Notes: generated by a model from the sequence alone, not told the origin. A stretch of DNA of 64,000 nucleotides from Candidatus Kapaibacterium sp. (GCA_025055035.1 JANWZB010000002.1:3000-66999); one strand, 5' to 3'. Counted from the first letter of the stretch, positions 9,856-31,100 are shown. A program made the numbers and translations.

Positions 9856-10041
9856 ACGCCATCTTAGGAACTATCTACGAAACATCTTAGCACAAATCTA
9901 CAAACATTCATTTCAGTACAACATGAAAAACTTTCTTTGATACTCCAACCTATCTGCAATTTCTTATAGTATCCATCGTCGAGCACGATGTTATTTCACT
10001 TGATGTCTGCACTTTTTCAAATTTATCAAGAAAGGCTTCAT

Positions 10042-10524
10042 ATGTCATCTCTTCTTGGTCAGCAAGCACCTAAATTCATTGCGCTCACAGACAACGGAGA
10101 AACAATTTCTCTCGATAACCTTCGCGGACAAACTGTCGTGCTATACTTCTATCCCAAAGACAATACAAGTGGCTGTATAGCAGAAGCTTGCGACTTTCGA
10201 GATAATATGCAGAGCATTCGTGCTGCCGGGGCAATAGTCATAGGGATCAGCCCTGATAGTCCAGCATCCCACACTACGTTCAAAAACAAGCATCAGCTAA
10301 ACTTTGCACTGATTAGCGATCAACAACATGACATTTCTATGCTCTATGGCGTTTGGGTCGAAAAATCTCTGTACGGACGAAAGTACATGGGCATAGAACG
10401 CAGCACATTTATCATTAATCCTGAAGGTATTATCATACGCGAATGGCGGAAAGTCAAAGTTGCTGGTCATGTGCAGGCTGTGCTCCAAGCATTACTATGT
10501 CTTCCCAAACTGAATCCTGAATAA
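10042..10524 (+). CDS. bcp: Peroxiredoxin Bcp/PrxQ (thiol peroxidase)
   Basis: MSSLLGQQAPKF...VVLYFYPKDNTSGCIAEACDF, with peroxidatic Cys in the T/SxxC context. An AAAGG site lies upstream of ATG 10042. Confidence 0.85.
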   Translation: MSSLLGQQAPKFIALTDNGETISLDNLRGQTVVLYFYPKDNTSGCIAEACDFRDNMQSIRAAGAIVIGISPDSPASHTTFKNKHQLNFALISDQQHDISMLYGVWVEKSLYGRKYMGIERSTFIINPEGIIIREWRKVKVAGHVQAVLQALLCLPKLNPE

Positions 10525-10609
10525 TCCGATACAGTTTTTATGCAAAAAATTATAAATTGCCCATAGCAAATCTCTTGTGAAATCCTCGCTCAATGAGATT
10601 GAATTGGCT

Positions 10610-11236
10610 ATGAGGCTATACCTCTTTTTTGCTTCTCTTGTTCGCACACTCGTCATAGGTGGATTGGCACAGGTCCTTCTATCATGCAAGAATGAAAAAC
10701 TAGATTTAGTACCTTCTTCCAAGAAGCCTTGGAAAACTATCCCAAACGTTGCAGTACAAACGCTGAGTGGCGACACAATACATCTCTCAGCACTATGCAA
10801 GCTGCAACCTGTCCTGCTATCGGTATATCTTGGTACTGGTTGTCCTATGTGCGTAGTGTCTATGAAACAACTATCCCAGCATGCCTATCGCTATAGAAGT
10901 TATGGCTGGAGAGTGCTTGGTTTGAGCAATGATTCTCCAGAGAGCAATCGCCGAGCACTTGCTGAACCTCGTCTCGATAGTAGTTTTATACAACCGGGTG
11001 GTGAGTTTGAGGTGGAGCTTCTTTCAGATTTTGACCATAATGCTATGGAGGCTCTAGGCTGTTATCGGCGTCATCTCGATACAGAGCGGCATGGACTTTT
11101 CCTGATTGATACAGCAGGATATATTCGATTTGAATATATCGACAAACGCCCTTTTCAGAATTGGTCTGCACTTACAGACACTATGAAAGCAATCTTTTTT
11201 AAACTGCATTCCCCCCATCCTAGAACACCATCCTAG
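10610..11236 (+). CDS. Redoxin/AhpC-TSA-family thiol-disulfide oxidoreductase lipoprotein
   Basis: Lipoprotein signal (MRLYLFFASLVRTLVIGGLAQVLLSC) followed by a thioredoxin-fold region (LSVYLGTGCPMCV). Sits in tandem after bcp. Confidence 0.65.
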   Translation: MRLYLFFASLVRTLVIGGLAQVLLSCKNEKLDLVPSSKKPWKTIPNVAVQTLSGDTIHLSALCKLQPVLLSVYLGTGCPMCVVSMKQLSQHAYRYRSYGWRVLGLSNDSPESNRRALAEPRLDSSFIQPGGEFEVELLSDFDHNAMEALGCYRRHLDTERHGLFLIDTAGYIRFEYIDKRPFQNWSALTDTMKAIFFKLHSPHPRTPS

Positions 11237-11302
11237 AACAGTACATCACAGAGATTAGTAGCCTTTTGCATCATTTTGTGTTATTGAGGAGAACTAGTTA
11301 CC

Positions 11303-13891
11303 ATGACAAAACAGCTACGACCATCATCGAAGCGCTCCACTCAAAGTCGTCGCCGAATTACTTCACCACAGTCGCTTATACCGGAGCGATACCATACTGC
11401 AATCTATATTGCAATACTTGCTGCGTCAGTCTTATTGTTTCTTCGCGGCACGCTCTTCGGTAGTGGAGTTTTTTTCGCATCCGACAACATAGCTTCGGGA
11501 AGCTTTATCCCGTTTTTAGAAGCAGCAAAGAAAAGCGGGGAGTACCCTTTATGGATGCCATATATCTTTTCTGGGCTGCCAAGCTATGCAGCTCTCTTAA
11601 CCACTGGTGAACGCTGGTGGGACATCATTATGCTTGTGTTCAACACTCTCTCGCGGAGCTTTGGTGCACTATTTGGAAGTGATGCAGCGCGTGTAGGACT
11701 ATTTTACATCCTTTACGGCATTGGAATATACATACTCATGCGCAGCAAGGCACACAGCCGATTTGTCGCGTTTTTTGCAGCGTTCTCCGCCATATTCTCA
11801 ACGTTTATCATTGTGTGGGTTGTGATTGGTCATAATACAAAGCCTATGGCTCTCATGACCTTTCCATATATCTTGCTCTTTCTTGAAAAGCTGCGCGAAC
11901 GATTCTCTCTGTTATTCGCAGTTCTTCTCGTCATTGCTGTTCATATCCTTATTGAATCAACACACGTGCAAATGGTCTTTTATGGGCTATGCTGTGTAAG
12001 CTTATACCTTCTTATTGAAGCAATAAACCGCCTTGTCAATAAGCAATCGGTTGCTGGGGTCGCAAGGGCAGCAGGAGTCATGATTATTGCTGGCGGATTA
12101 TCTTTCGCTATGGCAGCAGACCGATACTTATCTGTCCTTGAGTATACACCCTATTCAACGCGCGGTACTGCACCAATAGAGAAAACAGCAGGTCAGAAGC
12201 AGGATGAGAGTGGAGGATTCGACTATGAATATGCAACGAATTGGTCTTTTAGTCCGCAAGAAATGATAACGTTTCTTGTTCCCAACTACTTTGGCTTTGG
12301 GAAAATGACAATTAATGGTGAAATGCAAAATACCTACTGGGGGCAAATGCCGTTTACCGACGCTGCAAACTATATGGGGATTGGTGTGCTCACTCTAGCA
12401 ATTTTCGGTGCGTGGTACTGGCGGCGTGATACGTTTGTCCAGTTCCTTGTCGTAATGGCAGTTTTTGCTCTACTTCTCTCTTTTGGGAAAAACATGCCTC
12501 TTGTGTATAACATGTTTTTCTACGGCATTCCAAACTTCAACAAATTCCGTGCTCCCCAAATGGCACTTGCTCTGACACAGTTTGCTGTACCTATTTTAGC
12601 AGGCTACGGGATAACTGGCATACTGCAGCAGCGATCCTTAAATGACCAGAAGCGGCAGCGTGTTATTCAGCAGCGATGGCTTGTAGTTGGTGTTGGCGGC
12701 GCAGTCCTGTTCTTGCTTATAGGCTTTACATTTAGCATAGTAGGCAAAGAACCTTATATCAATGCTGTTTCTGCAGCTACTACAGAGCAATATCAGGCAA
12801 TTCTCACACAAGTTCGTGATAACCCGCAGCAGCTAGCAGCATACAAAGAGCGTATTGCACAACTTGCTCGGGAACGGGGAAAACAAATCTACCAGCTCAT
12901 GATCGACGACTGGTACACAACAGCGCTACTCGGATTTTTTTTCATGCTAGCAGCTTGGCTTCTTGTTCGTGGTACTCTTTCTACTGCTGTTGCTTTCGTA
13001 GTATTTGGGATTCTTCTAGCTATAGACCTATGGCGAGTAGCAGTGCGTCCAATCGAGATATCATCGCAGCGCTATGAACAAACAGTGTTCCGTAAAACAG
13101 ATGTCATCTCTTTTCTCCAACAAGATACAACCCTCTTTCGCGTAGCAGATTTCAGCCAAGCACCCAACATCATGGCGTACTTTGGAATACAGCATGTGCA
13201 TGGTTATCATTCAGCGAAGCTCCGTGTATATCAAGATCTTCTCGATGTTGCTGGGAAGGGTGGAGGTTCTGTTATTGCCAATCCATTTCTGTGGAATCTC
13301 ATGAATGTAAAATACCTAGTTTCGGAGCGCCCAATACTTGAAGGCATGCAGCCTGTGTTCAAATCTCAAGAAACTCCGCTGCTTGTGTACGAAAATCCTT
13401 CTGTTTTACCTAGAGCTTTTTTCGTTAACCGCGTGGAAGTTGCTCCGCAAATAGCTATTTTGCACCACCTCAGAGATGGAGACTTTGCTCCCCTAGAACT
13501 CGCATACCTTGAGCAACCACTCACACAGCCTATAGATACTATACCCGGTGACATAATGGAGCACATTAATCGAGTGCAGCTTTTAAAATACAACAACCAA
13601 TATATTGCGTTCAAGGTCAATGCATCTGGTAATAATTTTCTCTTTGCAAGCGAGGTGTACTATCCAGCAGGTTGGAGAGCATATATTGATGGAAAAGAAA
13701 CACCTATTTTCAAAACAAACTATGCATTTCGTGGTGTCATTGTTCCTCAAGGTACACATACAGTCGAAATGCGCTTTTTCTCAGAGCGTTTTATCATTGG
13801 GAAGAATATAAGCCTTGCCTGCAACCTTTTTGTTCTTGCTCTACTAGGAGTAAGCATATGGCAGTGGAGAAAACATGACACTCTATACTGA
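11303..13891 (+). CDS. YfhO-family polytopic membrane protein (glycosyltransferase-like)
   Basis: 862 aa with many TM helices and a large C-terminal extracytoplasmic domain. GAGGAG SD upstream. Stop is TGA. Confidence 0.65.
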   Translation: MTKQLRPSSKRSTQSRRRITSPQSLIPERYHTAIYIAILAASVLLFLRGTLFGSGVFFASDNIASGSFIPFLEAAKKSGEYPLWMPYIFSGLPSYAALLTTGERWWDIIMLVFNTLSRSFGALFGSDAARVGLFYILYGIGIYILMRSKAHSRFVAFFAAFSAIFSTFIIVWVVIGHNTKPMALMTFPYILLFLEKLRERFSLLFAVLLVIAVHILIESTHVQMVFYGLCCVSLYLLIEAINRLVNKQSVAGVARAAGVMIIAGGLSFAMAADRYLSVLEYTPYSTRGTAPIEKTAGQKQDESGGFDYEYATNWSFSPQEMITFLVPNYFGFGKMTINGEMQNTYWGQMPFTDAANYMGIGVLTLAIFGAWYWRRDTFVQFLVVMAVFALLLSFGKNMPLVYNMFFYGIPNFNKFRAPQMALALTQFAVPILAGYGITGILQQRSLNDQKRQRVIQQRWLVVGVGGAVLFLLIGFTFSIVGKEPYINAVSAATTEQYQAILTQVRDNPQQLAAYKERIAQLARERGKQIYQLMIDDWYTTALLGFFFMLAAWLLVRGTLSTAVAFVVFGILLAIDLWRVAVRPIEISSQRYEQTVFRKTDVISFLQQDTTLFRVADFSQAPNIMAYFGIQHVHGYHSAKLRVYQDLLDVAGKGGGSVIANPFLWNLMNVKYLVSERPILEGMQPVFKSQETPLLVYENPSVLPRAFFVNRVEVAPQIAILHHLRDGDFAPLELAYLEQPLTQPIDTIPGDIMEHINRVQLLKYNNQYIAFKVNASGNNFLFASEVYYPAGWRAYIDGKETPIFKTNYAFRGVIVPQGTHTVEMRFFSERFIIGKNISLACNLFVLALLGVSIWQWRKHDTLY

Positions 13892-14537
13892 CCAATCAAG
13901 CTCTGAGTTTGTAAGCTTTTCTCTAGCTAACATTGAAAACAGGCGCGACTCAGGTACAGTAAGTTTCTAAGCCGACACTATTTCAGCTGGTTCGTTCCTA
14001 TAATGGATTTGACCAGCTACAGATGAAATTGAAATACTGTAGCTACACAGCATACAAAGTCAATCTAAGAATCATCTGAGTACAAAGCTATGATGAACTT
14101 CCTACTACCTATAGAGCTGTTCCTTTCAAGGTGTCGGCAGCTTCAGATTACAGCTATTGTTCTTATAATGTAGTATAGCTTTTTTAATCCTGGGTTCTTG
14201 TGCTATTGTGCAGCAGATCACAGGAATAGACATGCCGCCACCTGACAACTACCGGCCACGGTTTATTAAAGCAACACGCACATTTTCTTTGGACAATTTA
14301 GACGATGCAGTACTAGAAAATAAGCCGAATAGAACCCGTTGCCGCAACAAAAGTAAAAGTATACATGCATCTGATTGATTCCAACGGTACTACCTTACTG
14401 GCGCATGTTCAAACGCACACAAAAAGATATGGTGCGAAGTCATTGACCACGTCGATGGAGTTCACCAGACCATTAAAACATTTACCGTTCGTGAGTTCAG
14501 CAAAGCTGAGCGTAAGCCTCAGGCTATTGCCTTAGTA

Positions 14538-16214
14538 ATGGATTTTAGCGGTTCAATGGGTGAAGGTAGAGCAAATGCTGTCCAGCAGGCAGCATACAAC
14601 TTCATCACTCAAGTCAAGCAGCCTAACGATGCTGTTACTCTCATCAAGTATGATCACCAAGTGTCTATAGAAGCACCTTTGACAACAGACAACAAATTGC
14701 TCATCCAGAATCTTCTTGCAAAAAAGGGCTTAGAAGGATATGGTGGTCAAACAGCAACTTTCTCAGGAATTGCTCAAGGAATTCGTGAGTTAACAAAATC
14801 TACTCCTTCACAGCAGCGCGTTGTTATTGTCTTTACTGATGGCGATTACAACGCATCACAGGTTTCGAAAGACGATGTCATTCGTTTCGCTCGCGAGACA
14901 AATACGATTATCTGTGCAATCGATTTTGGATATAGCATTGGTACTAATCTACTAGAGGAAATATCACGTAAAACCAATGGCACATATCATCACATCTATA
15001 ACCGCTCAGAGTTTGATCTAGTGTTTAAAGACATTTACCGCCGATTTGAACAGTACTATCTTCTGGAGCTTGAACAATCGGACTTCGGAACTCACACTAT
15101 TTCCGTAAAGCTGTGCCCACCACAGCAAATCTCATCATCCTTTGCCAATATAAGAGCAACTGGATACTATGATAATACTCCATATCCGGGATCTGTCTCT
15201 CTTCTTAATGTGTTCTTCGATGCTGATAAATCAGTACTCAGACCAGAATCGGAAAAAGCTATTAACCAACTTCTAAACCTGATGCAACGCGACACTAGCA
15301 TAATTATAGAATTACGTGGTCATACTGACTCGCAGAATAGTACCAAAGACCCTCAGCATAACTTAAAACTATCACAGCGGAGAGCTGAGGCAGTACGCGA
15401 TGCTCTTATCAAGCAGGGCATCAGACCAGAACGTATCTTTGCAAAAGGATTCGGCGACTCTCAGCTCGTTGCAAGCAATGCAACGCCAGAAGGGCGTGCC
15501 CAAAACCGACGCACAGAGTTTGCTATTCTAGGACAAAGCTGCAGAGCCCGTATCGACTCATTGCTTAACTTACCCCCAAAACGTATTGAAGCCGGATTAA
15601 TACAGCCATACCCAAACAGCAATCTTTCCTCATTACCACTACCCTCTTGCAAACAAGAACCAGAATCTATTTCATCTTTTGAATACCAAGTATGGCAAGA
15701 AATCAATCTTGCTCGTACCAACCCAAAGAAATATGCCACTTATATCAAAGAGTACGCTCAGCAACTACACTATCCCTTACGCGAAGGACCAAGCATTATT
15801 GAAGAGGCAATTTCCTATATGGATACTATATCGCCTCGTCCGCCACTTCCCCTTGCAGGATGCTTATGCCTAGCTGCTCGCGACCATGTAAATGACACCG
15901 GACCCAAAGGTATTTGGGGACACTCTGGCTCCGATGGAAGCGATCCCTTATCTCGCTCAAAGCGTTATATAAATGGATATGCATGGGCTTGTGAGAACGT
16001 TTCGTATGGGCAGACTACTCCTCGTAATGTCGTTATTCAGCTCCTTGTGGATGACGGTGTCCCATCTCGTGGCCATCGGCAAAGCGTCATGTACCATCTC
16101 AATAAAGCTGTTGGCATTGCAGCTGGCACTCACTCTCAGTATGGAACAATGTGTGTAATAGTTTTTTCTCTACAGGAAATCAATGGTCTTAAAACACTCC
16201 CTATCAAAGACTAA
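14538..16214 (+). CDS. vWA–OmpA_C–CAP(SCP/PR-1) three-domain protein; N-terminus apparently disrupted
   Basis: vWA MIDAS LVMDFSGSM...TDGD. OmpA_C ELRGHTDSQNS...NRRTEF. CAP/YkwD-like C-terminus (GHRQSVMYHLNKAVGIAAG). No signal peptide follows ATG 14538. The upstream in-frame sequence continues the vWA beta-strand but carries a TGA at 14376. Confidence 0.75.
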   Translation: MDFSGSMGEGRANAVQQAAYNFITQVKQPNDAVTLIKYDHQVSIEAPLTTDNKLLIQNLLAKKGLEGYGGQTATFSGIAQGIRELTKSTPSQQRVVIVFTDGDYNASQVSKDDVIRFARETNTIICAIDFGYSIGTNLLEEISRKTNGTYHHIYNRSEFDLVFKDIYRRFEQYYLLELEQSDFGTHTISVKLCPPQQISSSFANIRATGYYDNTPYPGSVSLLNVFFDADKSVLRPESEKAINQLLNLMQRDTSIIIELRGHTDSQNSTKDPQHNLKLSQRRAEAVRDALIKQGIRPERIFAKGFGDSQLVASNATPEGRAQNRRTEFAILGQSCRARIDSLLNLPPKRIEAGLIQPYPNSNLSSLPLPSCKQEPESISSFEYQVWQEINLARTNPKKYATYIKEYAQQLHYPLREGPSIIEEAISYMDTISPRPPLPLAGCLCLAARDHVNDTGPKGIWGHSGSDGSDPLSRSKRYINGYAWACENVSYGQTTPRNVVIQLLVDDGVPSRGHRQSVMYHLNKAVGIAAGTHSQYGTMCVIVFSLQEINGLKTLPIKD

Positions 16215-16226
16215 TGCATCCGAAAC

Positions 16227-17621
16227 TTAGTACTTGTCAGAATGCCAAATTGAGGCAAGCTCCTTATAAAACAGAGCGGAAGCAAGAATTCCGCGGTACA
16301 AATTCTTAAGAGTGAAGTGTTCATCAGGTGAGTGAGGATTTTCGGTATTAAGACCTACACCCATAAGTACAACAGGAGCATTCAGAATATCTTGAAACAA
16401 CAGAACAATAGGAATAGATCCTCCCTCACGCGTTAAGAATGGCTTTTTGCCAAATGCTTGCTCCATAGCACGCATCGCCGCTTGTATTCCTTTGCTTCTA
16501 GTAGGCGTAATAACTGGACGACCACCATGCAGTGCTCGCACGCGCACGCGCACGGTTGGGGGAGCAATCTGGACTACATACTTTTCGAACTTGTGGGCAA
16601 TGTCCTGAGGATTTTGATTCGGAACAAGCCTCATGGACACTTTCGCATACGCCTTAGAGGGCAATACCGTTTTTGCTCCTTCTCCCGTGTATCCACCCCA
16701 TAGACCATTCACATCAAGCGAAGGGCGAGCAGAAGTTTTTTCGAGCGTAGAATACCCAAACTCACCATCAGTTGCTGGAATTTCTAACTCTCGGCAATAT
16801 TCCTCTTCATTATGAGGAAGGGAGCGATATTGCTCACGTTCTTCGTCTGTCAATGGTATAACATCGTCATAGAATCCGGGTATTGTGATACGACCGTAGC
16901 TATCCGTCAAAGCAGCAAGAATTTTCGCAAGAGCATTTGCAGGATTTGCTACAGCCCCCCCAAATACACCAGAATGCAGGTCTCTATTGGGTCCTGTCAC
17001 CTCTATTTCCATGTAGCACAGTCCTCGCAAGCCGTAGCATATAGAAGGCACCTCATCGGCAAACATTGCTGTGTCAGAAATTAAGACAGTATCAGCAGCT
17101 AGCATATGCAATTTCTCGCGAAGAAACTTTTCAAGGTGTACGCTTCCTATTTCCTCCTCTCCTTCAATTAGGACTTTGACATTCACAGGTAGTTCCCGTA
17201 TTACCTTTGTATGTATCTCCAAAGCTTTGAGCTGCATAAACACTTGTCCTTTATCGTCTACTGCACCACGAGCATATATTTTCCCATCACGTACGGTAGG
17301 TTCAAATGGTGGATTTGTCCATAGATTGAGAGGATCGGTAGGTTGGACATCATAGTGCCCATAAAAAAGGACTGTCGGAGCATTGTCGCCTGCATGAATA
17401 TAGTCGCCATAGACCACAGGGTGACCTTCTGTGGGAAAGATTTGTACGTTTTCCAAACCAACTGCTTTCGCTGCGTGAGCAAGCCACTCGGCACACTGGT
17501 AAACATCATTCGCATGCTGCGGTGAGGTACTAATGCTCGAAATACGCAAAAACTCCTTGAGCTCTTCAATGTATCTTGTTTGCTGCTGTTCAATGTATTG
17601 TTGTAGTGCTGCGTTATCCAT
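16227..17621 (-). CDS. M20-family metallopeptidase (dipeptidase / ArgE-DapE-CPG2 clan)
   Basis: 464 aa with HYDVQP, GAVDDKGQ and EGEEEIGS motifs typical of M20 metal-binding residues. Confidence 0.8.
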   Translation of the reverse strand: MDNAALQQYIEQQQTRYIEELKEFLRISSISTSPQHANDVYQCAEWLAHAAKAVGLENVQIFPTEGHPVVYGDYIHAGDNAPTVLFYGHYDVQPTDPLNLWTNPPFEPTVRDGKIYARGAVDDKGQVFMQLKALEIHTKVIRELPVNVKVLIEGEEEIGSVHLEKFLREKLHMLAADTVLISDTAMFADEVPSICYGLRGLCYMEIEVTGPNRDLHSGVFGGAVANPANALAKILAALTDSYGRITIPGFYDDVIPLTDEEREQYRSLPHNEEEYCRELEIPATDGEFGYSTLEKTSARPSLDVNGLWGGYTGEGAKTVLPSKAYAKVSMRLVPNQNPQDIAHKFEKYVVQIAPPTVRVRVRALHGGRPVITPTRSKGIQAAMRAMEQAFGKKPFLTREGGSIPIVLLFQDILNAPVVLMGVGLNTENPHSPDEHFTLKNLYRGILASALFYKELASIWHSDKY

Positions 17622-17642
17622 GACTTACTTGTAGCAAGAAGA

Positions 17643-18143
17643 TGTGGAAAACTTGGTGAAAAACTTCTATTCTTGTGGAAAAGTTAAGGTGATTAACGAT
17701 TACCACTTCTTTTTCTTTCAAATGTTTCCTGTGCTAACTTACTATCTTATGTTCGCTATGCTCTTATCACATTGTGTAAGCATCGGAGTGCAAGATACTT
17801 CTATGCCAGTGAATAACCAAGATGAGTTTTACACATATCTCTATAGCTACGTTTTCCACATATTTTCCACCTATGTGAAAAACTTTGTGGATATACGGCA
17901 GGAAAGCTTTTGAAAAACTTCGGACTTTTTCTGGCAAAATCAATCTGATGTCTATTTTTCAACTTTCCATGAGCATAACTTTCACTCTAATTAACATTAT
18001 ACACACAACCTTCACTACGCTTTGCTACGCTATAAGTTTCTGTTATGTATTAGCTATTAGGAAGTTTACACAGCGTTTTCCACTTTTCCACAGTGTAAAC
18101 TTTTAGTACAATGTCTCATATATGCTTATATCATATATGCTTA
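17643..18143. promoter_or_regulatory. AT-rich intergenic region with seven DnaA-box-like 9-mers and a tandem 13-mer repeat (candidate oriC-like/DnaA-regulated element)
   Basis: TGTGGAAAA at 17643 and 17674. TTTTCCACA at 17852. TTTTCCACC at 17863. TGTGGATAT at 17886. TTTTCCACT at 18076. TTTTCCACA at 18084. Tandem TCATATATGCTTA at 18116-18128 and 18131-18143. Only low-complexity short ORFs here. Confidence 0.5.
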
Positions 18144-18282
18144 GACATACCAACATGTGCAATGCTTTTCTAGGCAGAATCTGACTAGAGGAACTGCTAA
18201 ATCTTGTATTTTTGCAGTAAAACAGCCCCAATTATTATACTACATACCACGCTGTATCACAATTCTACAACTTTACAACACT

Positions 18283-19668
18283 ATGGGAGAAGTATCCATA
18301 AGAGTAGTACTATTCTTTGTGATTGTTGGAGCAGTGCAGCTACTTCTAGATTGCATTGTATTATACTCATGGCGGTTGTACATACAACGCAAGCGCTGGT
18401 CTTCGCTGCTGTACACACTGCCAACACTTGTCGGAGTAGCAATGTTTATCCTATTTCCCGTGACAGTCTATTTGCGTTATACTGAGCTTCATCCAAGTCC
18501 TCTCAACAAGGCTCTACACAAACTGCTAGCAGTATGGTATGTACCCAAAGTACCTATTGCACTATTCATTCTTGGTTACTTCGGTGCACAAGCACTTCTC
18601 AATCGCTGGGGTGCAAAGATCGTTGCAGCACTTGAGTACCTGATAGAGAATACTCGAGCTGTTTCATTATTGCTAGTGCATCGCCTACATATGCACCGAG
18701 TAATAGCTTCGAAGGAACAGAAGCAGCGCAATCAGATACATAGCATAGAACGGCGTAAACTCCTAACATCATGTGTTCGCATAGGTACGTACGCTATAGC
18801 ATCTTCACCGCTAGTTGTGATAGGAAGAGATGCCATCAGCCTAGTTTATGACTTTGATGTCCAGCGTGTTACAATTCCTATACGCAACCTTCCCTCACAA
18901 TGGGAGGGCGTAACAATAGCTCAGATATCTGATATTCATGCTGGTTCCTTTTTCTCTGATAAGCCTATACAGGAAGTTTGTCGTATCATTGAGTCTCTTC
19001 GACCTGATGTGGTTGTTGTTACAGGAGATTGGGTAAATTGGAGAGCTTCTGAACTAAAGCTATTGTACCCTCACATTCAGCGTTTGTGCCGCTTTGCTCA
19101 GTCTTCTGCTCGGCTAGGATTGTGGGGTTGTCTAGGTAACCACGATCATTACTCTCATGGAGCTCAGCACCAAGCTCTGTTGAGCACTCTGCACTCTATG
19201 GGAGTAAAACTCCTTATTAACCAAAACGTTACATTAAAAGTTGATGGAGCGAAATTACAACTTGCTGGAATTGATAATATTGGGTTACGGCAAAATTACG
19301 GTCGGCTAGACAAAGCGCTAGAAGGCTTAGCACCAGACTTCCCAACTATACTGATGGCACATGATCCAACGTTTTGGGATGGCTATATTTGTGCAAAGCC
19401 TTTTTGTACAGAAACTGGAGAAATTCTTGTTGACGTGACGCTATCGGGACATACACATGGTGGTCAAATAGGGGTAAATGTATTGGGCAATAGTATCACA
19501 CCAGTACACTTCCTATATAAGTATTGCGCTGGGTTGTACAGCGATGAACATGGTTTGGGACAGCACATTTATGTCAATCGTGGGATAGGAACAACTGGGA
19601 TTCCAGTACGTATCGGTATCGCCCCAGAAATTACTCTGATAACCCTGAAAAAATTAGCAAGCACATAA
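18283..19668 (+). CDS. Membrane-anchored calcineurin-like metallophosphoesterase (YkuE-like)
   Basis: N-terminal TM helices, then DIHAG...GDWVN...GNHD...GHTHGG phosphoesterase motifs. Start taken at the internal Met (MGEVSIRVV). Confidence 0.7.
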   Translation: MGEVSIRVVLFFVIVGAVQLLLDCIVLYSWRLYIQRKRWSSLLYTLPTLVGVAMFILFPVTVYLRYTELHPSPLNKALHKLLAVWYVPKVPIALFILGYFGAQALLNRWGAKIVAALEYLIENTRAVSLLLVHRLHMHRVIASKEQKQRNQIHSIERRKLLTSCVRIGTYAIASSPLVVIGRDAISLVYDFDVQRVTIPIRNLPSQWEGVTIAQISDIHAGSFFSDKPIQEVCRIIESLRPDVVVVTGDWVNWRASELKLLYPHIQRLCRFAQSSARLGLWGCLGNHDHYSHGAQHQALLSTLHSMGVKLLINQNVTLKVDGAKLQLAGIDNIGLRQNYGRLDKALEGLAPDFPTILMAHDPTFWDGYICAKPFCTETGEILVDVTLSGHTHGGQIGVNVLGNSITPVHFLYKYCAGLYSDEHGLGQHIYVNRGIGTTGIPVRIGIAPEITLITLKKLAST

Positions 19669-19697
19669 TTTTGTGTCTTTAATATAAAAATGCAAAA

Positions 19698-19724
19698 CTG
19701 CTTCTAGTTTTTTCCTAGAAGCAG
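19698..19724. terminator. Bidirectional rho-independent terminator hairpin (10-bp perfect stem CTGCTTCTAG/CTAGAAGCAG)
   Basis: Lies between the convergent phosphoesterase gene and tRNA-Asn. A U-tract follows on the minus-strand side. Confidence 0.6.
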
Positions 19725-19749
19725 TTCGGTTATATAATGTTCCAGCAAG

Positions 19750-19823
19750 CTCCGGAAGCAGGGCTTGAACCTGCGACCCTCTGATTAACAGTCAGATGCT
19801 CTAACCAGCTGAGCTATTCCGGA
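19750..19823 (-). tRNA. tRNA-Asn (anticodon GTT)
   Basis: Reverse complement is TCCGGAATAGCTCAGCTGGTTAGAGCATCTGACTGTTAATCAGAGGGTCGCAGGTTCAAGCCCTGCTTCCGGAG. It forms a perfect 7-bp acceptor and an anticodon loop CUGUUAA. CCA is not encoded. Confidence 0.9.
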
Positions 19824-19893
19824 AAATAGCGCGTACTGTACACATAGCCCACAAATATATGCCTTTTCTATAGCAAAGTCAAGAACTTTTTTG

Positions 19894-20541
19894 CTATGGC
19901 AACATGTGCTGTTTGATAGATGGATCGGTGGACGGTGGATAAGATGTACTGCCTCGGATAGTTCCTAGGTCTTTTTGCATAAACCCAAAAATACTTCCAC
20001 AAATACCACCTAGAATATGAGCAAACTGTGATACATTGTCAGCTTTCAGCGAATTATATACCTCTCGTCCTAAATATAAGACTAGGACAATAACAAATGT
20101 TAGGGGAATGTATCCCTGTCGCAGATTAGCGAAAGAGCTGAGCAAAATCATCATAAACACAATCCCACTTGCTCCCATAAGTCCTGTTGTGAACAGAAGA
20201 TTATTCAAAACAGCTGTAACGACAGCAGTGGTGATAATCATGACAAGCATTGATTGAGAGCTGTATTTTTCCTCTAAGAGAGGTCCGATAAGCAAAATAA
20301 CAGAGAGATTTCCAAACAAATGTTCCCAGCTAGCATGACCGAATATGTGGGAAAATAATCGGAAATAAGTCATGATATCAGTCCACGAGGAATGAGGATA
20401 CGTTGCAAAAAACATTTGTCCGAGAGTACCACCTGTAAAATTACTTGCAATCATAACCCCAGCAGAGACTAGGGCAAAAGTCAGGACAACAGGGGAATTA
20501 TAATCAAGTTTCATGAACCTTACACTCAGCTGAAATGGCAC
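19894..20541 (-). CDS. Rhomboid-family intramembrane serine protease
   Basis: Six to seven TM helices. A GASG (GxSG) serine motif and a His in a later helix (AHILGG). Confidence 0.75.
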   Translation of the reverse strand: MPFQLSVRFMKLDYNSPVVLTFALVSAGVMIASNFTGGTLGQMFFATYPHSSWTDIMTYFRLFSHIFGHASWEHLFGNLSVILLIGPLLEEKYSSQSMLVMIITTAVVTAVLNNLLFTTGLMGASGIVFMMILLSSFANLRQGYIPLTFVIVLVLYLGREVYNSLKADNVSQFAHILGGICGSIFGFMQKDLGTIRGSTSYPPSTDPSIKQHMLP

Positions 20542-20552
20542 AAAATTAAAAA

Positions 20553-21224
20553 TTACACAATTTGTGGCATAAAAGGCAAGCTAGACTTTAGAAATAGTAG
20601 GAAAGAGCCAGAATGTAGATAAATCGTTACAGTATGATGGCGAGCTTGGTTTCTCGCGCCTTCTCGCTTGCCGAGAGCGAGAGTTTCGTTCGACAGATTC
20701 CACATTAGACCGTGAGTCGTAAGAGTAGCTTCCGGTTGTGGAATAAGGGAAAGCATTTCTCCAGGCTGTACTGAAAACTGTACCGATTCGTATACAGGAA
20801 GAGCAGTGGTACCGTTGTCGTATATAGCTATGCGCATAGTTTTCCCATAGCGCATAAGAATACTCCAGTTGTTTAAAGTATGGTCAAATTCTCCTCCGTG
20901 AAGACCAATCACTATAATTGACGAATATCCACGAGAGCGTACAAAATCAAGCGTTTTCTCGAAGTCAGTAGTATCTTGACTCGATTGTTCTTCTATAAAA
21001 ACGTGCTCACATTGTTCCCAATATATACGTTCTTGTGCCACGGAGTCTAAATCTCCAACAATGTACTGAGGAATGATACCTATATCTCGAAGTTTCAGAG
21101 ATGCACCGTCAGCTGCAGCTATAGGAAGTAAACGTAGGCATTCAAAATCTTCCTGATGCGGTAAGGTACCGTTTAGACAGACTACGATATCAGGTACAAC
21201 AAGCTTGAGGGTCTTTACAGACAT
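20553..21224 (-). CDS. Thiamine pyrophosphokinase
   Basis: N-terminal catalytic domain with the IVGDLDS signature, plus a C-terminal thiamine-binding domain. 223 aa. Confidence 0.7.
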   Translation of the reverse strand: MSVKTLKLVVPDIVVCLNGTLPHQEDFECLRLLPIAAADGASLKLRDIGIIPQYIVGDLDSVAQERIYWEQCEHVFIEEQSSQDTTDFEKTLDFVRSRGYSSIIVIGLHGGEFDHTLNNWSILMRYGKTMRIAIYDNGTTALPVYESVQFSVQPGEMLSLIPQPEATLTTHGLMWNLSNETLALGKREGARNQARHHTVTIYLHSGSFLLFLKSSLPFMPQIV

Positions 21225-21251
21225 GATGAATAATGTTTCACGTGAAACATT

Positions 21252-21309
21252 TGTGGAGTTTCCACAAGATTATCCACAAGATTGTATATTTTCCACAATG
21301 TTATCCACA
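21252..21309. promoter_or_regulatory. Array of five DnaA-box-like 9-mers (two perfect TTATCCACA) in the promoter region of the thiamine pyrophosphokinase gene
   Basis: TGTGGAG (rc) at 21252. GTTTCCACA at 21258. TTATCCACA at 21270. TTTTCCACA at 21289. TTATCCACA at 21301. The four head-to-tail boxes are spaced 12, 19 and 12 bp apart. Confidence 0.55.
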
Positions 21310-21318
21310 GTAAGTGGT

Positions 21319-23040
21319 TTAAATTTTGGTTGCTGATTTTGTGCAAGATGCATGCTCAGTGCAGCAGAGCACAAGCATTGTGATGTCATCTGACTGAGGT
21401 TGTTTACCAGCGTGGCGCTGTACTTCTTCAACAACAGCAGAAATGAGAGTTTGAGCAGATTGGTCAGAATAGGTGTGTAAGACTGCTTCAAGGCGCTGTT
21501 CTGTGAATTCTTCGTAGTGTTCGTTGAGCGCTTCTGAGACCCCATCGGTGTAGCATACAAGGATATCTCCTTTATCAAGAAAGATAGTCCGTTCTTCGTA
21601 TGGTATTACTGCTTCCATAACACCAAGTATTAAGCCACCCTCTGAGAGACGCTCTATCGTTCCGTTAGCACGTCGTACAAGGGGTGGATTGTGTCCCGCA
21701 TTACAAAATGTTAAGGTATGGTTCCGAGCATTGAGCTTCGCACAAAACAGTGTAATAAACTTATCTGCGCTTGTATTCGCAACAAGTAGCGTGTTGATTC
21801 GATTGACCAAAGATGAAAGTGGTAAATTTATCGGCGCTAAAGCTCGTAGAGCTGCTTGGATATTCGCCATTAGTAGAGCAGCAGGGGTGCCCTTGCCCGA
21901 AACGTCAGCAATCACAAGCAGCCATTCATCGTTGCCAAGAGAAATGACATCATAATAATCACCGCCTATCTGCTTTGATGAAATACTAATACCCATGATG
22001 TCAAATTCTGCTATAGTAGGTAGCTGCTGAGGAAGAAGACCTTGTTGAATTGTTCGGGCGAGGTTGAGCTCATCTTCGAGGCGCTTTTTCTCTAGTTCTT
22101 CATGAAATAACCGCGCATTCTCAAGAGCGATCATTGCTATTCCCCCAAGTGCTTCAAGAAAGTTACGCTCTTCAGTAGTAAAAGGTCGTCCATTCATCCT
22201 CGGTCCAACTAGTAGTAACCCTTTTACTTCGTTTTGTGTTTTCATCGGTACAGCAACAGCACAGTCATGTATGATATGCGAACATTCTTCTAGCACGTGG
22301 GGATTGCTGTAATATGCTGCGCTCAAGCGCTCGACGTCTTCGAGAGTAATATTCATTCGATTGATAGAAACCTCAAAGCTTGCACTATTGCGAAGGTTCT
22401 TTATGAGAACAGCAAACTTACTAACCGCCAGCTGTCCCATAAGGTGTAAGCTGAGAAACTTTAAGATATCCTCTTTGCGCAGGAGTGCAGTAAACTCTCG
22501 GTTAATTTCAAAGAGCGTCGTCAGAAGTTGATTTTTCCGCTCAAGATATATCCCTGTTTCCCGCAATGCTCGCAGGTTGCGGGCATTGAGTACGGCGTTG
22601 GCTGTGATGCTACTCACAAGCGAAGTGTACTGATACTCTTCTTCTGTGTATGGTTGTTGAGTAATGTTAGCACCAAAACATAGAAGACCAATACACTGTG
22701 GTTGCATATCGTTGATAGAAATGCATACTGCTTGGCACAGCTCAATACCAGCTGAAGTAATGACGTCATGGTGTATGGTGATATGACCGTTATTTTGAAA
22801 TTGAACAGGAATTTCAAGCGGCTCGTTTGGCAAAATAATGCCTTTCGCCACAATGCATCGCCAAATACTCAGATTCGATGTAAATACTGGTACAAGAGCA
22901 CAGGCTTTAACTGTACGCAGTTTCCCCATGACACTAAGAAGAGCGGTATTAAAGATAAAAGATTCATCGTCAGAGGAGTTCAGCGCGGCACTTAAATCGA
23001 TGAGTGATTGGAGATTGATAAGCGTTGTCGATGAAAGCAT
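21319..23040 (-). CDS. Tandem-GAF – PP2C (SpoIIE/RsbU-type) serine phosphatase
   Basis: C-terminal PP2C motifs (GGDYYDV, ADVSGKG, CNAGHNPP, DGVSEA, SDDITMLV). The N-terminal approx. 330 aa are GAF-like. Confidence 0.75.
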   Translation of the reverse strand: MLSSTTLINLQSLIDLSAALNSSDDESFIFNTALLSVMGKLRTVKACALVPVFTSNLSIWRCIVAKGIILPNEPLEIPVQFQNNGHITIHHDVITSAGIELCQAVCISINDMQPQCIGLLCFGANITQQPYTEEEYQYTSLVSSITANAVLNARNLRALRETGIYLERKNQLLTTLFEINREFTALLRKEDILKFLSLHLMGQLAVSKFAVLIKNLRNSASFEVSINRMNITLEDVERLSAAYYSNPHVLEECSHIIHDCAVAVPMKTQNEVKGLLLVGPRMNGRPFTTEERNFLEALGGIAMIALENARLFHEELEKKRLEDELNLARTIQQGLLPQQLPTIAEFDIMGISISSKQIGGDYYDVISLGNDEWLLVIADVSGKGTPAALLMANIQAALRALAPINLPLSSLVNRINTLLVANTSADKFITLFCAKLNARNHTLTFCNAGHNPPLVRRANGTIERLSEGGLILGVMEAVIPYEERTIFLDKGDILVCYTDGVSEALNEHYEEFTEQRLEAVLHTYSDQSAQTLISAVVEEVQRHAGKQPQSDDITMLVLCCTEHASCTKSATKI

Positions 23041-23064
23041 GATTTTGGTAAGGTTGCTATCCTT

Positions 23065-24363
23065 CTATGAAATTCCGCATCGTGCGAAAATTGCATCAAT
23101 ATTGCTAAGAAAGGACATTGGAATGCTAAAAATTTCTTCTAAATCCCTATGTGACAAGAATCGAGTAACATCTGCATCTTGTCTAAGGTGTTCTAAAAAT
23201 GGCTTACGGTCTTTCCATGTACGCATAGCGTTGCGCTGTACCATTGCATAGGCATCTTCTCGAGAAACACCTCGCTTGACAAGCTCTAGTAGAACAGTTT
23301 GCGAGAATATAAGTCCGCAAGTTGCATGTAGGTTCTTTTGCATGGTTTCTGGGTACACGAGCAAATTCCTAAGTAAATTGTTCGTGAGATGGAGCATGTA
23401 ATCCAGTATGATTGTAGAGTCGGGAATAACGATGCGTTCAACACTGCTATGAGAAATATCTCTCTCATGCCACAATCCAACATTTTCCATTGCAGCAATT
23501 GCATTTCCGCGAAGGACGCGAGCAAGTCCACAAATACGTTCGGACATAATAGGATTGCGCTTATGAGGCATAGCCGAACTACCTTTTTGTCCTGCTGAGA
23601 AGTATTCTTCCACTTCGAGTACTTCTGTACGTTGCAAGTGACGGACTTCGAGGGCGATTTTTTCCAGAGATGCGCCAATAAGAGCAAGCACCAATAGAAA
23701 CTCGGCGTGGCGGTCGCGTTGAATAATTTGAGTAGTTATAGGGTCTGGTTTTAAGCCGAGCTTCCGAGCCACGTATTCTTCAACTTTCATAGAAATGTGC
23801 TCATACGTTCCTACAGCGCCGCTAATCATGGCTACTGATACACTGTCAATTGCTTGGGTAAGTCGTCGTATATTGCGTTTAGTTTCCTCATGCCACAAAA
23901 GAAATTTTAATCCAAACGTTGTTGGTTCTGCATGGATACCATGGGTTCGACCAATACATATAGTATACTTGAATTCTTGAGCACGTTGAGCGGTAATATC
24001 ACGCAAGCGCTGTAGTCCTTCTAACAACAGCTCGCCTGCCTGCTTCATTTGAATAGATAAACATGTATCGAGAATATCGCTCGAAGTCATTCCCAGATGA
24101 ATATAGCGAGCAGATTCACCAACATATTCAGCCACGTTTGTTAGAAAGGCAATAACATCATGTTTTGTTGTCTCTTCAATTTCAAGTATTCGCTGAACGT
24201 CAAATTGTGCTTTAGCTTTAATATTGTCGAGATCTGCCTGTGGAACAATCCCAAGAAGAGCTTGTGCTTCAACGGCTGCTATTTCGATGTCTAGCCAGAT
24301 GCGATACTTGTTTTCGTCGCACCAGATTGACCCCATTTCAGGACGAGTATATCGTGCAATCAT
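23065..24363 (-). CDS. purB: Adenylosuccinate lyase PurB
   Basis: 432 aa. Start MIARYTRPEMGSIW, then the fumarate-lyase signature (GSSAMPHKRNP) and a C-terminal ADSL domain. Confidence 0.85.
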   Translation of the reverse strand: MIARYTRPEMGSIWCDENKYRIWLDIEIAAVEAQALLGIVPQADLDNIKAKAQFDVQRILEIEETTKHDVIAFLTNVAEYVGESARYIHLGMTSSDILDTCLSIQMKQAGELLLEGLQRLRDITAQRAQEFKYTICIGRTHGIHAEPTTFGLKFLLWHEETKRNIRRLTQAIDSVSVAMISGAVGTYEHISMKVEEYVARKLGLKPDPITTQIIQRDRHAEFLLVLALIGASLEKIALEVRHLQRTEVLEVEEYFSAGQKGSSAMPHKRNPIMSERICGLARVLRGNAIAAMENVGLWHERDISHSSVERIVIPDSTIILDYMLHLTNNLLRNLLVYPETMQKNLHATCGLIFSQTVLLELVKRGVSREDAYAMVQRNAMRTWKDRKPFLEHLRQDADVTRFLSHRDLEEIFSIPMSFLSNIDAIFARCGIS

Positions 24364-24891: not shown

Positions 24892-25178
24892 ACGCTTTTA
24901 GGGAAGTTGAGTAAAAAACATACGCATATAGTAGAGTAGCTGTAAAATAAAAATAAACGATGCAGACTAAATACGCAAGAGTTTGAGGCGTAATGTTCTA
25001 ATGCTCCAAATGGAAGAGCAATGTTTCACGTGGAACATTCCTGCCAAAAGCTTGAGGTTCTTACATGCTTCCTAGTTGATCTGATAGTACCATGTACTGC
25101 ATCTAACAAAAACTTGACTATTAGGTGGTATCTTAGTATTTTCTACTTGCACTCGTGTACCAATCGTATCCGAAAAAG

Positions 25179-27996: not shown

Positions 27997-28173
27997 ATAT
28001 ATTGAAGTTTGTCGTGAGCTGCCAAAGTGATATTTTTATGGGCTTAATTCTTGTCGCAATACTTTCAAATAGTGCCCTTCGCTATGATGTTGTGTGCTGT
28101 GCGTTGCTTCCATATGCTGCGTTGTGTGTGGAAAACATCATTGAAAACAGCATGTTGTAGCATAATGTTGCTG

Positions 28174-31100
28174 ATGTGCCAGAACCTGCAACGACTACAC
28201 ATCTCGCAATGCGGAGGAACTCTTCTAGTGTTGCTGCTCTCATCTGTACATGTATTGTACACGCAATCTTTAACGCTTTTTGATGTCAATGCTTCGGCGT
28301 TTCCTGTGGTCCGAGCAAAGTTTTTTGCTCTCGATGCTGACGGAAAACCGCTAACTGATATATCTGCTCGTGATGTTGTTGTGCGAGAGCATGGGGTCCC
28401 CCGAACTGTAACAGCTGTTGTGTGTTCTCCACAGCAGAGCACAGTGCGGTCTCTCTCTGTTGTTTTGACAATTGATGTTTCAGGTTCAATGAAAGAAGGA
28501 ACTTCGGGCGTTTCGCATTTGTCCTTAGCACAAGCAGCTGCACGTGCATGGGTGCAGGCTATGCCTGAAGAAAATGTCGAATGTGCAATTACAAGTTACG
28601 ACCACATAAGCTATCTCAACCAAGATTTTACACAAGACCGTAAGCGTCTCCTTAAAGCTATCGCTAATTTGAAGCCTCAAGGGGGAACAGATTATGATGC
28701 AGGACTTCTCAGACCGCAAGGAGGAAGCTTGTTCGTGATGCAAAATGCTAAGTATAGTCGCCGTATCGTCATTTTTCTTACAGATGGACAAGGCGGAGGA
28801 ACTGAAGAGCAAATAATTGAAGTAGCAAAAAGCGATGGCGTGAGCATATACTGTATTGCTGTTGGTATGCCTGCACCCGAAATTCTACGCAATATTGCAC
28901 GCCAGACAGGAGGAGAGTGCTTCGATAATATTACAACAGTTCAACAAGCTGAGCAAATCTACCGTATTCTGTTACAATTTGCTCTTGGGAGTAAGCCATG
29001 CGAAGTATCATGGCTCAGCGAGCAGACATGTAGTGTCAGCCGTGTGCAAGCAACACTATCGCTCCCTGCACGCCTACTCTCCCATGCGTTTACCTACGAG
29101 ATTCCCGCAAAAGCTGTCAAGGCGCTAGAATTTTCGAGCGAAAACATTACCTTTGGTGGAGTTCCTCCGGGAAAGTCGCGAGAGATGCGTTTAGTTCTAC
29201 GTGCACGTAATAGTGCGTTTACCGTTAATAGTATTGAGAGTTCAGATGAACGATTTAGTGTAACACCGACGTACTTTACCCTGAAGTCTGGACAGCGTAA
29301 AGTCGTTACTGTAAAATATACTCCTACAGATTCAGGATATGCCTTTGCGACACTAACAGTGAACGATAATGTATGTGGGAACCACACTCTGTATGTCAGT
29401 GCAGGATTCCCTGGAAAAAAGCCTCAGCAATCCACATTGAAGTTGTTAGAGCCAAATGGTGGTGAGCAGTATGTTGCTGGGTGTGATACGGTGATTCGTT
29501 GGCAGGGAATTACGCCATCGGAGGCTGTCAGTATTGAGTTCAGCGATGATAATGGTGCATCGTGGCAGAAAATCATTCCTGCTACAAGTGGTCTGCGAAC
29601 AGATTGGCAGATACCCAAAACTTCAACAACTAGAGCACTTGTTCGTCTAAGGCAGCTTCAATCGCCTACATTTTCTCATTTCAAAGACCTCATGACAAGT
29701 GCTGTCTTTCTGCCCGATAATCGTACAGCTGTAACACTTGGTTCAGGAGGAGTTGCGCGAGCATGGAATCTCGATAAAGGTACAATGGGGCAAATATACT
29801 TTAGCAACCAGTTTGGTCAGCGTAAGAGCACCCTACTTCCCGGTAAGCTTGTCGTAACACCGCAGGGCGAATACGTTATTGGCGGATTTGATGAAGGTAC
29901 TGTGCGAATTTGGGACGCTGCAAGTGGCGACTTAGTGGATGTATACTACGATCATGCCGATGCAATTACTGCATTGCGGTTCTTCCCGAGTGATGGGAGC
30001 CGTGTAAGCCGTGTTCTTACCGCAAGCCTCGACAGTACTGCACGAGTATGGTACATAGAGAACGCAGAAACTGCACTTGTGCTTAAGCATAACGGCCCTG
30101 TATACGATGCTGTTGTTTCACCTGATGGTTCTCTTATCGCGACAGCTGGTGGTGATAGTGTTGCTATGCTGTGGGATGCGAAAACAGGCGAGTTACTCTA
30201 CAGGTGCGAAGGACATACGGATGTTGTCCTAAGCGCTGCATTTTCGCCGGACAGTAAGAAGCTTTTGACAACAAGTGCTGATGGAACAGCACGAATCTGG
30301 GATACACGCAAAGGAACACAGCTGGAACGATTCACAGGACATAGAAGTGTTGTATATATGGGAATCTTCTCGCCCGACGGGGAGCGTGTTGTGACGTGTA
30401 GCGCTGATAGTACTATCAAGGTATGGAGTGGCAAAGGTGGAGGATGGATCCAAAATCTACGAGGGCACCAGGGTATTGTAAGAAAAATTATGTTTGTACC
30501 TAATAGTTCAGCGATACTTTCAAGTGTGAGTTCTGATAGAACAGCAAGAATATGGGATTTATCTGCAGGTCGTACAGTCCAAATTCTTGGAGGTGTTGAA
30601 GCACGCAGCAAATCCAGCGTTGGAAGTGGAATAGGCATAGCTGATGGGCATACTGGTGCAGTGTACGATATGGTATTTTCTCCTAATGGTGCGTATGCAG
30701 CTACAGTAGGCACTGACCATAAAGTGTATTTTTGGAGAATAAATACAACAGCATCAGTCTCTGCTGGAAGTATTTTTCGATCTAGCCCTTTAATTTGGGC
30801 GCTTGACACCACTGCTGTACAAGAAGCTATCTCTGCTGCTCCATTTACTATTACTCAGCCTCGTTTTTCTGTTAAAAGCATTGATATGGGGCGGCAACTG
30901 CGTGGGGACAGCAAGGATTCTGTTATTGTAGCTTGTATCCAAAATGAGGATAATACTCCTTTGCGCATTGATGAGTTGTCATTTCTTGGTAGTGCGGCAC
31001 AGGACTATAGTATTGTGTCAGGCGGAGCGCCGTGTATCGTACCCCCAAAAGGTTCTCGTAATCTGGAAGTACGCTTTAAGCCGTGCTGCGTGGGCGGGAG

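Follow-up and report, generated by a model that had tools for sequence, protein, structure and literature searches.

Where does replication start on a chromosome whose candidate origin region has two separate clusters of DnaA boxes and no dnaA gene beside it? This question is raised by a stretch of 64,000 nucleotides from Candidatus Kapaibacterium sp. (GCA_025055035.1 JANWZB010000002.1:3000-66999), hereafter the window, in which positions are counted from the first letter. An earlier reading made without database searches (the sequence-only reading) had described two DnaA-box clusters ∼3 kb apart and a tandem AT-rich 13-mer. It had proposed a bipartite oriC-like region, or alternatively DnaA-titrating or DnaA-regulated sites; the features it described were all recovered in place. 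We consider it likely that the first cluster (cluster 1), located upstream of an M20 dipeptidase gene, is a DnaA-dependent oriC, and that the second (cluster 2) is a DnaA-box cluster fused to the centromeric site parS and not the second half of an origin. For this uncultured Kapabacteria bacterium, cluster 1 very probably represents the true chromosomal origin. From sequence-level evidence, namely box enrichment, a skew switch, low duplex stability, positional conservation and matches to the parS consensus, we infer binding by DnaA and ParB, the place of unwinding and any effect on regulation.

DnaA-box clusters

The motif TTWTCCACA was found 11 times in the window, compared with 1.42 copies expected from shuffled sequences; four copies are located in 17643-18092 and three in 21270-21309. 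Allowing up to one mismatch to this motif, we counted 10 DnaA boxes in the 661-bp spacer that contains cluster 1 (17622-18282; 0.64 expected, Poisson P ∼2e-9) and four in the 94-bp spacer that contains cluster 2 (21225-21318; 0.09 expected, P ∼3e-6). The sequence-only reading had recognized the boxes of cluster 1 as DnaA boxes but had counted seven; the array has 10, including an overlapping tandem pair at 18076-18092. Apart from the two clusters, no 661-bp stretch of the 64-kb window contained four or more DnaA boxes. Equally dense arrays at many promoters would have pointed to the motif of another regulator, and within the 64-kb window no TTWTCCACA array was present at any other promoter.

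The preferred box variant in the window is TTTTCCACA and not TTATCCACA. This preference could be taken to mean that TTWTCCACA is the site of another transcription factor. We find that explanation hardly credible: the motif belongs to the accepted DnaA-box family, it clusters at the skew switch beside an unwinding-type element, and arrays of it are missing from the other promoters of the window.

G-C skew

The skew switch was assessed within the 64-kb window by cumulative G-C and by a two-segment likelihood scan, which placed the change point at 18,900:

18300-19200, no strand: G-C skew switch (2-lnL support interval 18,300-19,200; single cumulative minimum at 18898)

G-C skew was about -0.07 to the left of the switch and +0.054 to its right, and this polarity, negative to positive, marks an origin and not a terminus. 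Third-codon-position skew, taken in plus-strand coordinates, was negative in 11 of the 12 genes on the left and positive in 31 of the 34 on the right. A linear model gave a side effect of t = 7.7 after allowing for gene strand, and the gene-strand effect was small. The switch thus lies beside cluster 1, at 18.3-19.2 kb, and not elsewhere as an objection to the origin assignment would have it; cluster 2 is outside the support interval.

The nearest genomes to the window are metagenome-assembled genomes (MAGs) of Kapaibacterium and Ignavibacteria; loci from relatives are referred to below by L numbers. The block that carries the thiamine pyrophosphokinase (TPK) gene, next to cluster 2, has an orientation relative to skew opposite to that in L024, L026, L109 and L110, which suggests an inversion across the origin. 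This flip, the fact that the sequence is a MAG contig, and a phosphoesterase flank of cluster 1 unique to this genome could also be explained if the skew switch were an artefact, either a chimeric MAG join or a recent inversion breakpoint, that met the box clusters by chance. Another recorded contig of 50-200 kb shares mostly the same neighboring genes, and the junction between M20 and cluster 1 is kept in five other assemblies. It is also very unlikely that chance alone brought the switch together, within 7 kb, with both box clusters and both parS sites, given that the window has no others of either kind. An artefact is therefore very improbable in our judgment.

Anatomy of cluster 1

The sequence-only reading described the region at 17.64-18.16 kb as AT-rich, and the spacer at 17622-18282 has indeed an A+T content of 65% (window, 56%). 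Its elements are as follows:

17622-18282, no strand: cluster 1, putative oriC core, between the M20 dipeptidase gene (minus strand) and the phosphoesterase gene (plus strand)
17643-17651 and 17674-17682, minus strand: M20-proximal box pair, two exact TTTTCCACA 31 bp apart, beside the M20 start codon
17812-17826, no strand: conserved non-box block AATAACCAAGATGAG, not a canonical DnaA box
17827-17894, both strands: central box group with TTTTACACA at 17827 (plus), TTTTCCACA at 17852 (plus), TTTTCCACC at 17863 (plus), TTTTTCACA at 17874 (minus) and ATATCCACA at 17886 (minus)
18076-18092, plus strand: overlapping tandem box pair, TTTTCCAC and TTTTCCACA at an 8-bp offset, reading toward the AT-rich segment
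18096-18145, no strand: candidate DNA unwinding element directly beyond the tandem pair, with two exact 13-mers TCATATATGCTTA

A weaker box of the TTTTTCACC type sits between the two M20-proximal TTTTCCACA boxes, and the tandem pair is bracketed by a 10-bp inverted repeat (18062-18071 and 18093-18102). Among the 50-mers of the 64 kb, the segment 18096-18145 ranks third in instability (z = 3.25). The tandem 13-mer noted earlier is exact, with copies at 18116-18128 and 18131-18143, and its proposed resemblance to an unwinding element is credible at that level of duplex stability. Published DnaA-trio searches required at least three NAN trios within 0-16 bp of a DnaA box with up to two mismatches (PMC8287927, PMC6669920). 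Three NAN triplets located 7 bp from the tandem pair fit this rule, which by our estimate ∼1/3 of AT-rich sites would fit by chance. An Rfam scan of 16000-23500 returned tRNA-Asn only, with no structured RNA in either spacer.

Conservation of cluster 1 in relatives

Relatives that carry the array were metagenomic or MAG loci, reached via the SpoIIE-like gene next to cluster 2 and via the M20 gene. An array of 9-11 boxes in a spacer of 450-650 bp was present upstream of M20 in L027, L104, L105, L106 and L112, where M20 identity was 76-80%. We aligned the window with L027, L104, L105 and L106 (alignment A1); L112 was added later and is outside A1. In this alignment the boxes are kept in position and orientation and the spacers between them have diverged. 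The positions of the central box group are kept as well. The 31-bp pair recurs with the same spacing and orientation in L027 (6200/6231), L105 (9920/9951) and L106 (10051/10082), and the 8-bp-offset tandem pair has the same orientation to M20 in L027, L104, L105, L106 and L112 (9573/9581). Seen from M20, the least stable 50-mer is found beyond the tandem pair in all five aligned regions. The top-conserved block of the array is TCATCTTGGTTATT, the M20-sense strand of 17812-17826, invariant in 5/5 genomes of A1. It had no Rfam match; a second origin-binding protein may bind there, or the block may be a promoter element. The far flank of the array varies, with the phosphoesterase in the window, UvrA in L027 and other genes elsewhere, and the gene that follows M20 differs every time. 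M20 is the only gene with conserved linkage to the origin array.

The array was missing upstream of three other M20 orthologs, L111 (77% identity), L107 (73%) and L020 (61%). Because such orthologs exist, the array is not an intrinsic feature of the M20 promoter, and a plain promoter role was ruled out. The phosphoesterase was also tried as the conserved partner of the origin and was rejected, since 21 relatives (35-57% identity) share neither neighbors nor box clusters.

Rearrangement and extra boxes were observed at several of these loci. In L111, an M20 ortholog without the array, the spacer at 9640-9770 includes a long, GC-rich palindrome, CCCCCTTGATAAAGGGGGAACGGGGGATT ... AATCCCCCGTTCCCCCTTTATCAAGGGGG, that could be a repeat-element insertion, and a single TGTGGAAAA box is left at 9499-9507. 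In L112 the phosphoesterase ortholog follows M20 directly on the same strand (10001-12815). The two genes diverge from the origin spacer in the window, and the L112 order is a further sign of rearrangement at the origin. L106 has five to six DnaA boxes at ∼12-bp spacing at 14260-14330 (wider cluster 13793-14298), within the frame of an RmlD-like epimerase. This intragenic cluster is ∼4 kb from the M20-linked array and also encodes a peptide insert. L104 has three exact TTTTCCACA in 42 bp (7325-7366) inside a dnaX-like (DNA polymerase III gamma/tau) gene, ∼5 kb from the array.

The description of the region as origin-like holds for cluster 1, which combines a box cluster, a putative unwinding element, the skew switch of the 64-kb window and conservation in relatives. 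An alternative would make cluster 1 a locus for DnaA titration or DnaA-dependent regulation (datA-like, or of the Bacillus subtilis type) that controls M20 and the phosphoesterase, with the real oriC beside dnaA on another contig. A dnaA-linked oriC has been described in Melioribacter roseus (PMC3534657), B. subtilis is known to have box clusters away from oriC (PMC3245932), and the skew in relatives is weak. We nevertheless regard this alternative as quite unlikely. The switch falls within ∼1 kb of cluster 1, with skew otherwise uniform on each side in the 64 kb; a low-stability AT-rich element is conserved beside correctly oriented tandem boxes; two parS sites are nearby; and M20 orthologs without the array indicate that it is not needed for M20 expression.

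Cluster 2 and the parS sites

Cluster 2 abuts one of two parS sites in the window:

21234-21249, no strand: parS site 1, perfect palindrome TGTTTCACGTGAAACA, 9 nt upstream of the TPK start codon
21251-21309, plus strand: DnaA-box array abutting parS, with GTTTCCACA at 21258, TTATCCACA at 21270, TTTTCCACA at 21289 and TTATCCACA at 21301
25022-25037, minus strand: parS site 2, TGTTCCACGTGAAACA, between a DUF3299 gene and an RmlD-like gene

The parS consensus is TGTTNCACGTGAAACA, and parS sites are found mainly in the origin domain (PMC7022226). Both sites have 0 mismatches to this consensus, whereas 0.25 matches would be expected in the window even at up to two mismatches. They are the only two consensus parS sites in the window and lie 3.1 and 6.9 kb from cluster 1. 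The box spacing of 12, 19 and 12 bp given by the sequence-only reading is correct. The array is a 31-bp tandem duplication of a two-box unit (21251-21278 and 21282-21309).

TPK orthologs in L024, L026, L108, L109 and L110 are 56-62% identical, and all five have parS just upstream of the TPK start, at the same place as site 1, together with a DnaA box located exactly 18 bp upstream of parS. An ortholog of site 2 is present upstream of the RmlD-like gene in L026, L108, L109 and L110. The DnaA box nearest to parS is at a fixed offset of 17-18 bp in six of six TPK orthologs and the spacer sequence differs; the 9-12 nt between box and parS vary in the relatives. The gene upstream of TPK-parS varies too: some relatives have a SpoIIE/DinB-like gene there and others a GNAT gene. 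In the relatives, the two parS sites also have an extended flank in common, TGTGAAT-parS-TT. A DinB-family open reading frame (ORF) of ∼158 aa is located between the SpoIIE-like gene and TPK in L024 (1905-2600), L026 (11684-12343) and L109 (7023-7499). It is missing in the window at 21225-21318, where the DnaA-box array fills the shortened spacer.

A scan for sigma-70-like promoters gave 14 sites compared with 10.4 expected and was uninformative; it did not confirm the placement of the array on the TPK -35/-10 region that the sequence-only reading had given. Read-through transcription of TPK is equally possible, because only 9 nt separate parS from the start codon and the gene upstream runs in the same direction as TPK in all of the genomes.

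The M20-linked array was absent from the five TPK-parS loci in the 6-10 kb of flank read on each side. In the MAG GCA_049241505.1, the M20 array (L104) and TPK-parS (L108) are on different contigs. L110 has an array of four to five boxes near TPK, three of them additional to the conserved box and at 12-bp spacing, and its skew is monotonic with no switch. The distance of 3 kb between cluster 2 and the putative oriC is specific to this genome. Since the conserved TPK/parS element recurs without the M20-linked array, cluster 2 is best read, on these comparisons, as an expanded version of a conserved TPK/parS-linked DnaA-box site and not as a half-origin.

The strongest form of the bipartite proposal is a true split origin that needs both clusters, with DnaA forming a bridge between them and the 3.1-kb block looped out. 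Two significant clusters 3.1 kb apart with a skew switch between them would suit such an arrangement, a second box cluster is also found 4-5 kb from the M20-linked array in L106 (13793-14298) and L104 (7325-7366), and bipartite origins are known (PMC3479198). Those second clusters, however, are at non-orthologous places, and none was found in L027 (5.6 + 3 kb of flank) or L105 (∼10 kb on each side). Cluster 2 is itself orthologous to a TPK/parS element far from any M20-linked array, it falls outside the skew support interval, its 94-bp spacer is too short for an unwinding element, and the two clusters are not separated by a dnaA gene. A split origin was therefore not borne out: the clusters are not inherited together, one being linked to M20 and the other to TPK/parS, they occupy separate contigs in GCA_049241505.1, and the L110 array comes without a switch. 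We consider it unlikely. The fallback proposal of a DnaA-titrating or DnaA-regulated site came nearer the mark for cluster 2, but it missed the adjoining parS.

Genes of the window and points against the origin assignment

Genes were identified by Pfam scans of essentially all ORFs of at least 120 aa and by a six-frame search for DnaA signature motifs. The genes flanking and separating the clusters are:

16227-17621, minus strand: M20 dipeptidase gene (Pfam)
18283-19668, plus strand: Metallophos phosphoesterase gene, between the clusters
19749-19823, minus strand: tRNA-Asn, between the clusters
19894-20514, minus strand: rhomboid gene, between the clusters
20553-21224, minus strand: TPK gene, between the clusters

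The four intervening genes are those named by the sequence-only reading, and a GAF-SpoIIE phosphatase gene lies beyond the 94-bp spacer at 21225-21318. The gene arrangement at 18283-21224 is kept in no relative. The TPK protein is identical in every residue to one encoded on contig JAVQWN010000002.1 (69 kb) of the MAG GCA_033578975.1, and the proteins carry the label Candidatus Kapabacteria / Bacteroidota in their sources. As had been claimed, neither dnaA nor dnaN was found in the 64-kb window, nor were gyrB, recF, gidA, rpmH or parAB; the sequence is free of dnaA and dnaN for 17 kb to the left and 42 kb to the right. DnaA signature motifs were absent from the window and from 107 loci (1.34 Mb), and none of the classic origin genes (dnaA, dnaN, etc.) was found within ∼10 kb of the arrays in relatives.

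Several observations weigh against an origin at cluster 1. The genes dnaA and dnaN were not found in the window, so a second box cluster may adjoin dnaA, and in Melioribacter roseus oriC has been placed in the 303-bp spacer between dnaA and dnaN (PMC3534657). ParB was not found in the window. The 13-mer repeat is confined to this genome and is not conserved in alignment A1. The DnaA-trio motifs beside the tandem pair are not above chance, and their placement is inconsistent in A1. Only 20 of the 46 genes are co-oriented with forks leaving from 18 kb, and tRNA-Asn (19749-19823) is head-on. Around the arrays of relatives (∼10 kb on each side) the skew signal is weak or mixed, with a switch close to the array in L027 and L106 and ambiguous values in L104, L105 and L112; it was not counted in favor of an origin.

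Two proteins of unusual architecture are encoded in the window. One, of 1618 aa (28051-32907), has a VWA domain, multiple WD40 propellers, Cep192-like Ig domains and a C-terminal OmpA domain; the other is a 558-aa VWA-OmpA-CAP protein (14538-16214). Both are unrelated to the origin finding.

Proposed mechanism and significance

If cluster 1 is the origin, DnaA would fill its ∼10 boxes, and the tandem pair at 18076-18092 would steer the DnaA oligomer onto 18096-18145, where the duplex would open. The helicase would then load and forks would leave both ways, which would give rise to the skew switch at 18.3-19.2 kb. ParB would load at the two parS sites, spread, and organize and segregate the origin domain including oriC. 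DnaA bound beside parS may titrate the initiator near oriC or couple initiation with segregation, and the boxes adjoining parS could also affect TPK transcription.

The oriC and the parS sites described here are not new in kind; they are further members of their classes in an uncultured lineage. The least ordinary element is the conserved fixed-distance composite of DnaA box and parS. As a tentative idea, in Kapabacteria a DnaA box may be hard-wired 17-18 bp from parS so that DnaA acts at the centromere to license or time ParB/SMC-dependent segregation, or so that ParB spreading gates DnaA. To our knowledge, coupling between DnaA and the centromere has so far been demonstrated only in Caulobacter. 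If the idea is true, such coupling would be ancient or would have evolved repeatedly outside Proteobacteria, and the composite would offer a second, phylogenetically remote system for testing initiator action at the centromere. A well-supported map of origin and centromere for a lineage available only from metagenomes also serves coverage-based replication rates, genome finishing and the anchoring of coordinates. In this clade oriC appears to have left dnaA and to travel with a dipeptidase gene, with its surroundings reshuffled.

Comparison with known systems

In the Escherichia coli oriC, box R1 (TTATCCACA) reads toward the AT-rich repeats, the same orientation as that of the tandem pair in cluster 1. 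An origin at a distance from dnaA is nothing unusual, and E. coli is the paradigm of this type (PMC8287927). Cluster 1 resembles the E. coli type in being a monopartite array away from dnaA with repeated AT-rich 13-mers at one edge. It differs in its flanks, which are the M20 dipeptidase and phosphoesterase genes and not gidA/mioC. It also has two 13-mers of unrelated sequence in place of three, and these are not conserved even within the clade. GATC clusters are lacking, and the box nearest the putative unwinding element is part of an overlapping tandem pair.

The basal unwinding system of B. subtilis has a box pair oriented toward AT-rich DNA, as in cluster 1. In both systems the tandem pair adjoins the least stable segment, and here the orientation of the pair is kept in six genomes (PMC8287927, PMC6669920). 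The trio run of cluster 1, in contrast, is short, at chance level and inconsistently placed in relatives, and no GC-rich spacer is evident. The bipartite origins of B. subtilis and Helicobacter pylori likewise have two box clusters a few kb apart with the unwinding element in one of them (PMC3479198). The intervening DNA in the window is not dnaA, however, the clusters are not co-inherited, and the second belongs to the parS/TPK module.

In Caulobacter crescentus the parS region is located ∼8 kb from Cori. Binding of DnaA to boxes in that region has been described (Mera et al. 2014 as reviewed in PMC6399470). The likeness to this centromere lies in DnaA boxes that directly adjoin a consensus parS at a distance of a few kb from the origin, the motif being shared by origin and centromere. 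The element described here belongs to a different phylum (Bacteroidota/Chlorobiota group) and is known from sequence alone. Its box keeps a fixed distance of 17-18 bp to parS, the 31-bp duplication has raised the number of strong boxes to four, and the element is placed 9 nt upstream of the TPK start codon.

The DnaA-box clusters of B. subtilis and datA of E. coli buffer the initiator near the origin (PMC3245932). Cluster 2 is similarly a short, dense, high-affinity array near but outside the putative unwinding origin, such arrays being partly in promoter regions, and relatives carry similar extra box clusters, including intragenic ones. Cluster 2 differs from these in its physical fusion to parS.

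The oriC of Melioribacter roseus comes from a related lineage (Bacteroidetes/Chlorobi group) and likewise has standard DnaA boxes at the skew switch. The DNA around cluster 1 (17 kb on the left, 42 kb on the right) contains neither dnaA nor dnaN; because the M. roseus origin lies between dnaA and dnaN, the origin of the Kapabacteria clade appears to have been relocated.

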